From positions 16,458 to 80,457 of IMG/VR virus record IMGVR_UViG_3300042879_003566: 64,000 nucleotides of DNA, one strand, 5' to 3'. Below, one piece after another: positions 3,680 to 18,009 of the stretch (the first letter of the stretch is position 1; every line of letters begins with the position of its first letter). A program made the position numbers and the translations under genes. The notes below the pieces were generated by a model, which worked only from the letters and a program-made list of their open reading frames with translations, ran no database searches and had not been told where the DNA came from. This DNA comes from a virus.

Positions 3680-4351
3680 ATGACGACACTTGTTGCCAAC
3701 GTACCGCCCGTCAAGGTGTGGGTCAGACGGGAATACTTGCGTGACCTACGCGACGGCCATGGTGAATACACACCTGGTTATTGGGTGACCTGTAAATCAT
3801 TGACGGGTCGTGCCCTGTATTTCGAGACGTACCTTACTGAGTATGGCGCCCTATACGACAAGTTACCGATCAGTGCATTCCTAGCATGGGACTCAGATCA
3901 TCCCGACAAACCACAACCACCAACACCTGATCTTGAGCTGACTGACCTGCAGTTTTGGAATGGGTTTGACACTGGGCTTACGGTCATTGAAAAGAACCTG
4001 ATCTACAACATGGAGTTTCAGGTGATGACGCGTAGTGCAGGCGTCATGAAAGGCGAGTATCTTTTTACAATTGATAACTATCACCCCCACCGCAATGAAC
4101 CCGATTTTTACTTTGCTGAATTCCCTGATGAGCACAAGTCTCACAACATTGTGGCCTTGGATAACGGCCAAATCGGCGCTTATCCCAACAATCGTTGTCG
4201 CATGTGCGACCCATCGTTAACGCACCACAACCTCAAGACCCCAGACTTTAAGGTGTCGACGCGGTACTTTGATGTTGAACATGCACCGAAGTGGGGCAGG
4301 CTGGGTGAAACAGATGATTACTTCTGGAAAACACCCAACGAAACCCTATAA
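3680..4351 (+). CDS. conserved cyanophage-type hypothetical protein
   Basis: 223-aa ORF. ANVPPVKVWVRREYL...YGALYDKLPISAF resembles a protein common in aquatic phages (from recall). Confidence 0.75.
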   Translation: MTTLVANVPPVKVWVRREYLRDLRDGHGEYTPGYWVTCKSLTGRALYFETYLTEYGALYDKLPISAFLAWDSDHPDKPQPPTPDLELTDLQFWNGFDTGLTVIEKNLIYNMEFQVMTRSAGVMKGEYLFTIDNYHPHRNEPDFYFAEFPDEHKSHNIVALDNGQIGAYPNNRCRMCDPSLTHHNLKTPDFKVSTRYFDVEHAPKWGRLGETDDYFWKTPNETL

Positions 4352-4359
4352 TTTACGAA

Positions 4360-4478
4360 AGGGTACAACAAGGAACGTTGTATTAAATGAAGAGTCCCTT
4401 AAGCTGCAGCGTAAATTAGCGAAACTTGCTTCAGCATAAGTCGCCTAGTCGCTAATCGTAGGCAGATACTCTCGCCCT
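4360..4478 (+). ncRNA. putative multibranch RNA with kissing loops, directly upstream of tRNA-Thr
   Basis: Nested stems; loop sequences ATTAGCGA (4415-4422) and TCGCTAAT (4449-4456) are exact complements; TATAAT at 4347-4352. Confidence 0.6.
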
Positions 4479-4482
4479 ACTC

Positions 4483-4554
4483 GCTGGATTAGCTCAGTGG
4501 TAGAGCAATGGTTTTGTAAACCATTGGCCATCGGTTCAAATCCGATATCCAGCT
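4483..4554 (+). tRNA. trnT: tRNA-Thr(UGU)
   Basis: Acceptor GCTGGAT/ATCCAGC; D arm TAGCTCAGTGGTAGAGC; anticodon arm ATGGT-TTTGTAA-ACCAT; T loop GGTTCAAATCC. CCA not encoded. Confidence 0.95.
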
Positions 4555-4598
4555 TTGCAAAAGTTAGTTATAGTTATCGCAGTGACTTGTTGGCATTA

Positions 4599-4847
4599 GT
4601 GCCAAGTTCCAAGCCAAAGCTTCAAGAGAACCGAAACAAGTTCTTGGAGTACAAAAAGACTTTGTCCTGCAATAACTGTGGGATAGATGACCATCGCGTC
4701 CTGGAATTCCATCATGTTGGAGACAAGGACCATACGATCTCAAAGATGGTGAACCACGGCTACAGCTGGGAGCGGATAGAAGAAGAGATGCGTAAATGCA
4801 TTCCGCTGTGCTGCAACTGCCATCGGCTTGAGCACTGGAGTGCCTGA
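4599..4847 (+). CDS. small HNH endonuclease
   Basis: CNNCG...LEFHH...KCIPLCCNCHRLEH. GTG start chosen downstream of the tRNA. Confidence 0.85.
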   Translation: MPSSKPKLQENRNKFLEYKKTLSCNNCGIDDHRVLEFHHVGDKDHTISKMVNHGYSWERIEEEMRKCIPLCCNCHRLEHWSA

Positions 4848-4961
4848 TTACTTTTTCTTGCCGCCGTTTTTAGCTTTACGCGCAGTTGCATTACCGGAGT
4901 TCTGCTTAGCGTTTTGCTTTGCAGCGGCCGTCTTTTTCTTTTTGTTTTTAGATTTAGCCAT
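4848..4961 (-). CDS. 37-aa Lys-rich basic protein (not in ORF track)
   Basis: MAKSKNKKKKTAAAKQNAKQNSGNATARKAKNGGKKK; its start overlaps the Dps stop. Confidence 0.6.
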   Translation of the reverse strand: MAKSKNKKKKTAAAKQNAKQNSGNATARKAKNGGKKK

Positions 4962-5505
4962 TTCTCAGTGTGGCTTTGATTTGCCAAGCGGCCTTAAATG
5001 CCTGACCAGTTAAGTCAGCAAGATAGTTTTGAATATCGATGGCACCCACCTTGGCGGCAATCGGCTCCAGTTTCTTGCACTTCATGCCCAGCTCCTCAAG
5101 GTTCTTGTAGTACACAGCGAGCATTTCCGTGCCCTTGTAGCTGGTAACTTTTTGGATACCGGGTGAGGCATCGGCAAGACCCATGCCACAAAGAGGCATC
5201 AGATAATCCATAGATCTGATGAACTCAGCCAACGTATCGAACTGTTCCAGATGAGCTTCGTATTGGTCTTTAAGGAATGCATGCACCCCGAGGAAGTTAG
5301 ACCCCTCGTAGTTCAAGTGAATGAGATGGGATTGTGTCTCAAGTTCCTTGAGGTAGGAAGTGAGGGAAATGCACTGCTGGATGAAGGACCCGACATCACC
5401 ATTCTTTGATTTACCAGGAGCCTTGGGCTTGTCCTGGGGCTGAGGAACCGCTTGCGTTGAAGCGGGTTGAGCTTGCTGGGGTTGACCAGGACCGGGAGTA
5501 TACAT
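4954..5505 (-). CDS. dps: Dps / ferritin-like DNA-binding protein
   Basis: HLIHLNYEGSNFLGVHAFLKDQY...DTLAEFIR matches the Dps ferroxidase pattern H..G..F..H...D..AE. Confidence 0.75.
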   Translation of the reverse strand: MYTPGPGQPQQAQPASTQAVPQPQDKPKAPGKSKNGDVGSFIQQCISLTSYLKELETQSHLIHLNYEGSNFLGVHAFLKDQYEAHLEQFDTLAEFIRSMDYLMPLCGMGLADASPGIQKVTSYKGTEMLAVYYKNLEELGMKCKKLEPIAAKVGAIDIQNYLADLTGQAFKAAWQIKATLRNG

Positions 5506-16185: not shown

Positions 16186-18009
16186 TTAGTGGGTATCAGA
16201 CCAAGTCTTACCAACTCGGGAGTCACCTTCAATCAAGCATTGAAAGTTAAAAAACTCCTGGGCCTGGGGGAATGAAAGCATAGCTTGCTCCCTGATTTTT
16301 TCTGTGTGATCTGGATGGCATGCAATTTGGATTTCATCATGCACCATCAACAGCTGCTCCCAGTCTTGACCGTAGACCAGACCAAGGTTTTGTTCAATGT
16401 TTTGTTGCGTAAAAACAACAACTTGTTTCATAAGGATTGCACCTGCGGATTGCAGGAGAACATTCAATCCTTTGAACGCAGAGCGACAATGCAGAACGCG
16501 ACGATCAAGACCACGCAAATAACCCCGGGATCCAATAGTTTCATCAATCTGTTGTTTAAGTTTCTTTAATGCAGGTACACCTTTCATGAATGAATTGATA
16601 GCATTACTTCCCAGTTGCCGGAGAACTAATTCATCCTTTTCATCAGGGTCGATAATGGTACCAGCCTTGGCAGCACCACATCCGTAAAGCATTCCATACA
16701 ATAACCGCTTACTAATATCACGAGTTGCTACGCCAAACTGCTCTTGGTTATACGTATGGATATCAATTTCCGGGTTAACAACTAGAGAAGCATACTCTCC
16801 GTTGTCCCAAAGGGCCAAGTATCCAGCAAGGCAGCGCAGCTCAAGTGCTTTAGCGTCAATACCAATGAGGTCCCACCCGTAAGGAGCATGGAATAAATTG
16901 CGACATTCCTTTCCATATGGGGAGTAAGACGCAGGCACTTGGCCCATGTTTGGATTACGGTGTGCGCACCGCCCAGTGATGCAACCGTTAGTAATAAGGT
17001 CGCCGTGGATACAGCCAGATTCGTTGTTGAACAACTTGATCCAAGCATTGTTGCCATCTGCAATTTGACCAAGACGTTTTTTGACCAGCATGTATTCTGC
17101 CAATGGCTTGGCTTCTGGGAAAGGCAATGTCTCTAATACCTCATCATTAAGGATTGGATTTCCTTTCTCAGTAGTTTTTTCTGGTCGCCATCCGTACTTC
17201 TGCGCAAGTCGATTAGCAATCTGGTCACGAGATCCAGGATTGAATTCTTCAATGCAGACTTTTTCAAATGGGACACCTTTGACATAGCCACGGGTTTTGT
17301 TGTTGACCTTGGGAGTAAACCAAGAGCGATGTTCAATAGGCGGGAAGACTTTCTTTAACTCGTCTTCAAGTTCTTTTTGTCTTGTGCGTAGTACATCCAC
17401 AAGATCAAAAGCTGCATCAAGATCAAAAGGAACACCTGATCTAACTTGTCGATCAATTGCAAGCGCAAAGTCGTGCTCCAGTTTGAGCGCCGCCTCTGGG
17501 TAGTGTTGCTTGCAGATGTGTTCCCAAAGTTTCTTAGTAACTTCCACGTCTTGGATGCAGTACTTAAGCATCTCTTCTGAATAGACGGAGAAGTCCTTGA
17601 AGTTGATCTTATGATCGGCCAAGCGCCATCCCCACGCCTTAAGCGATGCGGATCCACGTAGGTTCGGTGAAACCTGCGAATATTGTTCGATGTCAAGGTC
17701 ATAGAGAAGTTCTTTGGGCCAGATCAATCGTGTGCAAATGAGTGTGTCAATGATGCGTGATTTGCATGTGAATGAATGTAGTTTTTGTAGGACTGGAATG
17801 TCATAGAAAATAATATTGTGCCCGATCAAAACATCAGCGGTTGCCAGATGAGCAAGAGCATCAGCAATGTGATCAGGCCCATAAGTAAAAGTTTGTTTGC
17901 GTCCAATGTCATAGAGAACAATGCAGTGGATAACTGTGACAGCATCATAAAGATTGTCAGACTCAAGGTCAAAGACCAACCAGGTTTCACTTACGGAATC
18001 TGGCTTCAT
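16186..18009 (-). CDS. polA: DNA polymerase family A (T7-like; 3'-5' exonuclease plus polymerase)
   Basis: ExoI FDLESD, ExoII GHNIIFYD, ExoIII YCIQDV; motif A DAKALELR; motif B KRLLYGMLYG; motif C VHDE. Confidence 0.96.
   Translation of the reverse strand: MKPDSVSETWLVFDLESDNLYDAVTVIHCIVLYDIGRKQTFTYGPDHIADALAHLATADVLIGHNIIFYDIPVLQKLHSFTCKSRIIDTLICTRLIWPKELLYDLDIEQYSQVSPNLRGSASLKAWGWRLADHKINFKDFSVYSEEMLKYCIQDVEVTKKLWEHICKQHYPEAALKLEHDFALAIDRQVRSGVPFDLDAAFDLVDVLRTRQKELEDELKKVFPPIEHRSWFTPKVNNKTRGYVKGVPFEKVCIEEFNPGSRDQIANRLAQKYGWRPEKTTEKGNPILNDEVLETLPFPEAKPLAEYMLVKKRLGQIADGNNAWIKLFNNESGCIHGDLITNGCITGRCAHRNPNMGQVPASYSPYGKECRNLFHAPYGWDLIGIDAKALELRCLAGYLALWDNGEYASLVVNPEIDIHTYNQEQFGVATRDISKRLLYGMLYGCGAAKAGTIIDPDEKDELVLRQLGSNAINSFMKGVPALKKLKQQIDETIGSRGYLRGLDRRVLHCRSAFKGLNVLLQSAGAILMKQVVVFTQQNIEQNLGLVYGQDWEQLLMVHDEIQIACHPDHTEKIREQAMLSFPQAQEFFNFQCLIEGDSRVGKTWSDTH

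Follow-up and report, generated by a model that had tools for sequence, protein, structure and literature searches.

A structured RNA family, apparently undescribed, in the tRNA arrays of cyanophages

What kind of RNA, if any, is encoded directly upstream of the transfer RNA (tRNA) gene for threonine in a stretch of 64,000 nucleotides (nt) of viral DNA, positions 16,458 to 80,457 of the IMG/VR record IMGVR_UViG_3300042879_003566? This whole stretch, called the window below, belongs to a complete 80,457-bp (base pairs) record of a lake-water phage, and a preliminary description made from its letters alone had placed at this point a multibranch RNA, lying between a -10 box and the tRNA, in which the loops of two arms kiss through an 8-bp helix. 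Our comparison with homologues indicates that positions 4360-4478 of the window (+ strand) are a member of a conserved and selected structured RNA family, which upholds the earlier claim of a structured non-coding RNA on the tRNA strand directly upstream of tRNA-Thr, but points to a different fold. A covariance model (R1) was built from 38 short members of the family and used to score one copy per locus at 90 loci; against this model of other members, the window reaches 86.6 bits (E 1.1e-18) over the full model length, with every family element present, and the window genome holds this single copy of the motif.

The fold is a Y-shaped three-way junction with one long arm, in which P1 and P3 lie on a continuous 3' strand. 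All positions are in window numbering, and the window copy lies on the + strand. Its parts are as follows.

4360-4478, + strand: the whole RNA motif, 119 nt, a three-way junction with a long arm, 86.6 bits with R1
4360-4363, + strand: 5' strand of P1, AGGG, pairing with CCCT at 4475-4478; GGG/CCC invariant
4364-4382, + strand: P2 hairpin, TACAAC (4364-4369) with GTTGTA (4377-4382) and the loop L2, AAGGAAC (4370-4376)
4383-4387, + strand: junction J2/3, UUAAA, invariant and the sole linker of the three-way junction
4388-4395, + strand: 5' strand of P3, UGAAGAGU, with one A bulged, pairing with ACUCUCG at 4468-4474
4396-4403, + strand: asymmetric internal loop J3/4, CCCUUAAG, in which CCC is invariant
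4404-4407, + strand: 5' strand of P4, CTGC, pairing with GCAG at 4462-4465
4410-4414, + strand: 5' strand of P4a, CGUAA (family consensus CGUAG), opposite CGUAG at 4457-4461
4415-4422, + strand: 5' strand of P5, ATTAGCGA, pairing with TCGCTAAT at 4449-4456, the base of an optional insert
4426-4443, + strand: P6, the hairpin that caps the insert, TTGCTT (4426-4431) with AAGTCG (4438-4443) and the loop CAGCAT
4457-4478, + strand: the 3' strands, P4a CGTAG (4457-4461), P4 GCAG (4462-4465), J4/3 AU (4466-4467), P3 (4468-4474) and P1 (4475-4478)

Fold and covariation of the motif

Folding energy fails to separate the motif from shuffled sequences (minimum free energy z-scores of -0.6 to -0.75 in the window and of about +0.07 to -0.9 in four homologues), and the case for the fold therefore rests on the comparison of homologues. 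A MAFFT alignment of 38 short forms (A1) had 98.5% of its cells paired and showed compensatory changes in 13 of the 23 pairs, while none of 500 shuffles was as good and slid controls were 37-52% paired. The covariance-model alignment (A2), which holds 83 distinct sequences, was 97.7% paired, with compensatory changes in 14 of the 23 pairs and in 242 cells. RNAalifold independently recovered the same helices and added the pair U4388-G4474. More than 30 G-U cells of A2 are valid on the + strand only, so that the structure itself is valid only on that strand.

The AGGG/CCCT closing stem, the TACAAC/GTTGTA hairpin and the AGAGT/ACTCT stem of the preliminary description all recur in this fold, conserved and covarying, as P1, P2 and P3. 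Three G-C pairs of P1 never vary, and its outer pair reaches 77% pairing (54% in shuffles), a level that none of 2000 shuffles attained (AU 48, UA 9, GU 3, GC 2); an alternative P1, with the 5' GGG pairing with the internal CCC, was rejected, as its flanking pair is only 9.6% paired. P2 has 6 bp, of which 5 show compensatory changes (TGCAAC/GTTGCA, GCCTCC/GGAGGC, GTTGCC/GGCAAC), and its 5' strand also appears as TACAAC, TACGAC and AACGCC, among others. The loop of P2 is 7 nt long (nAGGAAn), and its AGGAA core is near-invariant even among the matches for which the loop was left unspecified; the UUAAA of J2/3 is likewise invariant among matches from patterns that leave these bases free. P3 consists of 7 bp and one bulged A, with compensatory changes in 4 pairs; its variants include AGAGT/ACTCT, AGGGT/ACCCT, AGGAT/ATCCT and ACAGT/ACTGT, together with an exchange of G-C and A-U at 4389/4473.

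After P3 comes a CCCnU bulge with a covarying non-Watson-Crick position, A4401 with U4467 (columns 48/129: A:U 36, C:C 35, A:C 9, G:C 2), and with G4403 standing opposite A4466 (an R:A apposition at columns 50/128). The CCC bulge may pair with the GG of L2, since both lie about equidistant from the junction; both are also invariant, so that covariation cannot test this pseudoknot. The 4 bp of P4 are 100% paired and all four covary family-wide (CCAC/GTGG, CTGC/GCAG, CTGA/TCAG, CCGC/GCGG). Beyond a two-base bulge, P4a is a symmetric internal loop of two near-invariant CGUAG strands, whose flanking pairs are C-G in 81 of 82 and G-C in 75 of 81, and it may be written as C-G, G.A, U.U, A.G and G-C, with putative non-canonical pairs. 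The window copy deviates from the family in having CGUAA for CGUAG, AG for AU and CCCU for CCCC, and each of these occurs in other members. In total, about 35 unpaired nucleotides are invariant across the family, and the unpaired core appears to be under strong purifying selection.

At the tip of the long arm, the window copy carries an insert composed of P5, an internal loop and P6. This type of insert is common to 13 contigs, and when the insert alone was searched for, every match lay inside the motif; no insert is present at this point in 46 of the 82 distinct members, and the rest carry several unrelated hairpins there, such as TTCACCG/CGGTGAA. Among the 13 insert-bearing members the inner 6 bp of P5 are conserved and 3 pairs show compensatory changes (UA 5, AU 3 and CG 2 at one of them). 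P6 is 92% paired in the same members, through mostly one-sided changes (G-U to G-C and U-G to C-G, in either direction) and 1 compensatory change, which leaves this hairpin with weak to moderate support.

The two strands of P5 are the 8-nt complements that had been placed in two kissing arm loops. Their pairing is conserved and covaries among the insert-bearing members, as the kissing-loop model would have it, but P4 encloses both strands, and they are therefore a nested helix and not a loop-loop contact; the ATTAGCGA/TCGCTAAT pairing is real, but as an ordinary nested helix in a peripheral domain that is dispensable. The proposed arms (CTTA-GCTG at 4398-4406 with CAGC-TAAG at 4432-4440, and GCCTA at 4443-4447 with TAGGC at 4459-4463) can be read in the window, as can all the other complementarities that the model named, but they are not conserved: they are 72% and 75% paired in the 13 members, show no compensatory change and clash with the fully paired, covarying P4. 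Moreover, the whole region involved is missing in the 46 members without an insert. A multibranch RNA with kissing arms is thus contradicted by the arm pair counts and by P4, and we regard it as extremely improbable.

Distribution of the family and relation to known RNAs

Among cultured phages, blastn matched both the 5' half of the element and its 3' end in S-CREM1 and DSL-LC03, two T4-like cyanophages that carry it inside a tRNA array, with a tRNA shortly downstream. Searching IMG/VR with sequence patterns located the motif in about 130 viral contigs altogether; an exact 18-mer gave 52 contigs, a pattern with the P2 stem left free gave 106, and a pattern anchored on the 3' half, with GGG, P2 and the loop free, gave at least 120. 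Each core element was left free in at least one of these patterns and was still invariant. The members are 80 nt long without inserts and 92-162 nt long with them. The carriers span at least three unrelated cyanophage lineages, namely the T4-like Kyanoviridae, S-TIM5-like phages, which are the group with a GC-rich P2, and the S-EIVl-like lake lineage of the window. The motif was not found in the genomes of S-TIM5, S-EIVl and S-CBWM1, and its distribution is therefore patchy. A pattern scan of one genome per species for 185,579 prokaryote species returned 10 matches, of which 7 were chance matches and 3 true ones, all three on small contigs of metagenome-assembled genomes that bear tRNA arrays. 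On present evidence, the motif seems to be restricted to phages.

At the gathering score, no family of Rfam 15 matches the motif of the window or of 14 further loci, and a cmscan at E<=10 of window positions 4200-4700 and of a short-form locus (L099, 4080-4270) returned only the tRNA and one chance match to a CRISPR repeat on the opposite strand. The suggestion that the RNA could belong to manA, wcaG or a ribozyme class of Rfam did not survive this search. In the window and L099, neither manA (RF01745) nor wcaG (RF01761) was matched at E<=10, although the manA model finds a true manA 89 nt downstream in S-CREM1 and true wcaG copies occur elsewhere in the same loci. At the same threshold there was no match to the Rfam 15 ribozymes (hammerhead, twister, twister-sister, pistol, hatchet, HDV-like, that is, hepatitis delta virus-like, and hairpin) or to the Rfam riboswitch families. 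A tRNA or tRNA-like identity was also rejected, as ARAGORN and the Rfam tRNA model (RF00005) call only 4483-4554 and the motif has no GTTCRA T-loop. Homology with T4 rnaC and rnaD was tried with R1 with its filters off, which gave no match to them, the best score in that T4 region being 9.8 bits and lying elsewhere. By eye the motif is also similar to the GTPase-associated centre of 23S rRNA (H42-H44, UUUAAA junction, L11), and here too R1 gave no match (E. coli 1051-1108).

The preliminary description was nevertheless right in assigning the RNA to the same general kind as manA and wcaG. These RNA motifs were described in T4-like cyanophages as riboswitch candidates (Weinberg et al. 2010; PMC2864571) and, like the present motif, are conserved, covarying RNAs of unknown function that occupy the same tRNA arrays in other phages. 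Unlike them, the motif is a single three-way junction with one long arm, found mainly beside tRNAs and not in mRNA 5' untranslated regions. The candidate structured RNAs (csRNAs) of Fremin et al. (2023) were obtained from the same source, IMG/VR intergenic regions, and by the same kind of evidence, covariation; the text of that study does not describe the motif or its tRNA-array context (PMC10690425), and its catalogue of 8,495 unnamed IMG/VR DNA-virus candidates may include the family. With these points considered, the family is best taken as phage-restricted, missing from Rfam 15 and apparently undescribed.

Genomic setting beside tRNA genes

The features around the motif in the window are the following.

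3680-4351, + strand: upstream gene of 223 amino acids, phrog_3704 (labelled ferredoxin), E 5e-97
4325-4352, + strand: promoter-like site TGGAAA-16-TATAAT, matching at 10 of 12 positions
4479-4482, + strand: 4-nt spacer between motif and tRNA, with the sequence ACTC
4483-4554, + strand: tRNA-Thr(UGU), called by ARAGORN, Rfam tRNA 76.1 bits
4587-4847, + strand: gene for a small HNH endonuclease, start codon uncertain, phrog_2255, E 6e-21

The start of the tRNA 4 nt past CCCT, correctly noted in the preliminary description, is typical of the family. Of 86 non-redundant contexts, 50 have the start of a tRNA no more than 30 nt downstream, mostly 4-6 nt past the last C of CCC (mode 5 nt), and 30 have the end of one no more than 30 nt upstream, the commonest distance to GGG being 2 nt. 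The identity of the downstream tRNA varies (Pro, Arg, Met, Ala, Val, Leu, Thr, Ile and others), and all of the 185 tRNAs found within 400 nt are on the motif strand, with none opposite. No tRNA lies within 400 nt in 14 of 77 scorable contexts. The array of S-CREM1 reads wcaG, tRNA-Met, a tRNA-His-like gene, motif, tRNA-Leu, manA and tRNA-Asn, and it also contains an annotated abiF RNA.

Protein-coding neighbours were counted in 111 contexts, and no conserved protein partner was found among them, only the lineage synteny of phrog_3704 and a frequent HNH gene, neither of which is present in all lineages. The phrog_3704 gene, whose representative in the window has no Pfam match, is upstream of the motif in 26 contexts, and the phrog_2255 HNH gene is downstream on the same strand in 25, window included. 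In one locus (L030) the HNH gene directly follows the motif, which is intact, and there is no tRNA-Thr, an arrangement that suggests a mobile cassette; the downstream HNH endonuclease may help to explain the patchy spread of the motif. Farther along the window, a gene at 4954-5505 (- strand) encodes a Dps/ferritin-like protein (PF00210, E 1e-10) that is conserved in 31 related loci.

The TATAAT proposed as a -10 box is present at 4347-4352 and, with TGGAAA, makes up the best sigma-70-like site nearby; judged by sequence, the upstream gene could plausibly end in a promoter. The box, however, is unproven, because it overlaps the stop codon (TAA, 4349-4351) of the open reading frame at 3680-4351 and because such sites are as frequent in shuffled sequence (3 against 2.0 expected, no enrichment). 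In the closest relative, L153, TGTATAAT is retained, with a 40-nt hairpin module separating it from the motif, and related loci carry TGTAGAAT about 40 nt upstream of the motif. A 40-nt module is seen just upstream of the motif in L008, L075, L101, L127 and L153, and also in L005, L086 and L143. It separates the motif from an upstream tRNA (in L153, from the -10 box) and consists of the hairpin YAGGC-AGAUA-GCCYR, whose stem covaries, and of GAAGGAG after it.

Possible roles of the RNA

The motif combines a selected fold and a co-orientation with tRNAs with a tRNA-like slot in the array, no fixed tRNA partner, a constrained core and a free periphery. We favour, with moderate confidence, the interpretation that it is a stand-alone small RNA that is excised by tRNA-processing enzymes and whose invariant core binds a conserved partner. 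The RNA would be co-transcribed with the tRNAs, and in the window the TATAAT box immediately before it may drive this transcription. RNase P would cut at the 5' end of the downstream tRNA, a release step that the preliminary description had already put forward and that fits the tight spacing, and RNase Z or RNase E would cut behind the upstream tRNA where there is one. The motif would in this way be excised like a tRNA-sized unit, giving a free RNA of about 85-125 nt that would recognise a conserved partner, protein or small ligand, through its invariant core (L2, UUAAA, the CCC bulge and the CGUAG loop).

There are known RNAs with which such a product can be compared. T4 rnaC and rnaD (species 1 and 2), which lie directly behind tRNA-Arg, are small RNAs of unknown function arranged head-to-tail with tRNAs and only a few nucleotides apart from them, and they are stable RNAs matured from the tRNA precursor; rnaC, however, ends in a tRNA-like T-arm, which the motif does not have. 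In E. coli, the tRNA-processing machinery frees 3'ETS-leuZ and the internal spacer of metZWV from tRNA precursors, after which they act in trans. These tRNA-spacer RNAs are base-pairing sponges for small RNAs and have little structure, whereas the motif is highly structured and nothing points to an antisense target.

Several observations weigh against an excised, partner-binding RNA. Its processing and stability are inferred from spacing alone, and a tight spacing is typical of any element in a compact tRNA array, so that by itself it does not prove excision. Contigs from three metatranscriptome studies do cover the motif or close relatives, but they are only a weak hint of expression, because they show neither ends nor levels and are compatible with DNA carry-over. 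The pattern-based collection of members means that more diverged ones are missing and that ascertainment accounts for part of the core invariance, and the folding energy of single sequences, as stated above, is unremarkable.

Other roles have to be considered in view of the same data. The fold could be a cis-acting leader or spacer that steers or protects the maturation of the neighbouring tRNA precursor, for instance by keeping out RNase E or a 5' exonuclease or by displaying the site for RNase P, and that has no life after cleavage. Its position 4-6 nt from the 5' end of the tRNA in most of the adjacent cases would suit this function, as would the location of the motif at or near the transcript start, downstream of a -10-like box, in the lineage of the window. 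However, the partner tRNA varies freely and is absent altogether from some contexts, L030 keeps an intact motif although its tRNA is gone, and some 35 invariant unpaired nucleotides go far beyond the needs of a protective hairpin, which makes a leader or spacer unlikely. The extent of unpaired conservation also bears on the possibility that the motif is a self-cleaving ribozyme of a new class, trimming tRNA precursors as HDV-like theta ribozymes do behind phage tRNAs. A start 1-3 nt after the upstream tRNA in about 20 contexts and an end 4-6 nt before the downstream one agree with such an activity, but numerous copies lack a neighbouring tRNA on at least one side, no Rfam ribozyme model gives a match at E<=10, and, with P2 closing after a mere 7 nt, the helix order does not fit the HDV-like double pseudoknot. 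A ribozyme is, in our judgment, very unlikely.

A riboswitch-like aptamer, in which the junction and the contact of L2 with the CCC bulge would make a pocket for a small molecule, and which would either alter the fate of the downstream RNA on ligand binding or serve as a ligand sponge, agrees with the architecture itself, since a three-way junction with invariant junction and loop nucleotides and tolerated peripheral inserts is typical of aptamers; the motif also shares its arrays with the riboswitch candidates manA and wcaG (PMC2864571). Nevertheless, no expression platform is apparent, as no terminator and no element sequestering a start site or Shine-Dalgarno sequence is seen at the motif or tied to P1. 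What follows is usually a tRNA of varying identity, and there is no match to an Rfam riboswitch; we regard this explanation as unlikely. For these reasons a stand-alone RNA released from the tRNA transcript continues to be the interpretation we prefer.

The nature of a possible partner may be approached through abiF RNA (RF03085), which is similar to the motif in being a short, structured, free-standing unit in the same cyanophage tRNA arrays. In bacteria, abiF RNA is the RNA antitoxin of AbiF (PMC12373285), and by analogy its presence suggests that these arrays may express small protein-binding RNAs. It differs from the motif in being a 37-nt hairpin with a known cellular toxin partner, while the motif has neither cellular copies nor a known partner. 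Because antitoxin-type hairpins of this kind occupy the same arrays, the motif could be imagined as a phage decoy RNA that neutralises an RNA-binding defence or toxin protein of the host or a tRNA-targeting nuclease, an idea that we hold to be speculative and of low probability. If it were true, the tRNA arrays of cyanophages would be general launch pads for anti-defence RNAs, cheaply expressed from the tRNA operon.

Phage tRNA clusters are usually read as devices for codon usage or against tRNA nucleases. The motif adds to them a third class of uncatalogued or orphan folded RNA, beside manA/wcaG and abiF. Since two cultured phages carry it, S-CREM1, which grows on Synechococcus CB0101, and DSL-LC03, with their hosts, the RNA ends, the partner and the phenotype are directly testable. 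The covariance model would let annotators fill a stretch that is otherwise left blank, and it would guard against reading too much into complementarities that arise by chance, like those of the supposed kissing loop.

The arrays that carry the motif hold further structured modules. Free-standing abiF RNAs were found at L019:2874-2910 (-), L008:9976-10012, L002:1991-2027, L003:2089-2125 (-) and L012:10933-10969 (-), and in L019 the abiF RNA lies 5 nt after the motif. Directly 3' of the motif, T4-like loci have another structured module, about 90 nt long (L003:1388-1478 (-), L012:10222-10321 (-), L020:6742-6841 (-), L068:5472-5573 (-) and L093:12694-12795 (+)). A third copy of UCGUAGGUG opens this module, GUAGGUG pairs with CACCUAC to close it, and its end, CCACCUACCA, lies a few bases before tRNA-Asn; no Rfam family matches it at the gathering score. 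Finally, the tRNA array of an S-TIM5-like contig contains an Rfam tRNA-Sec (L070:6518-6605, + strand), which scores 51.4 bits against a gathering score of 47.

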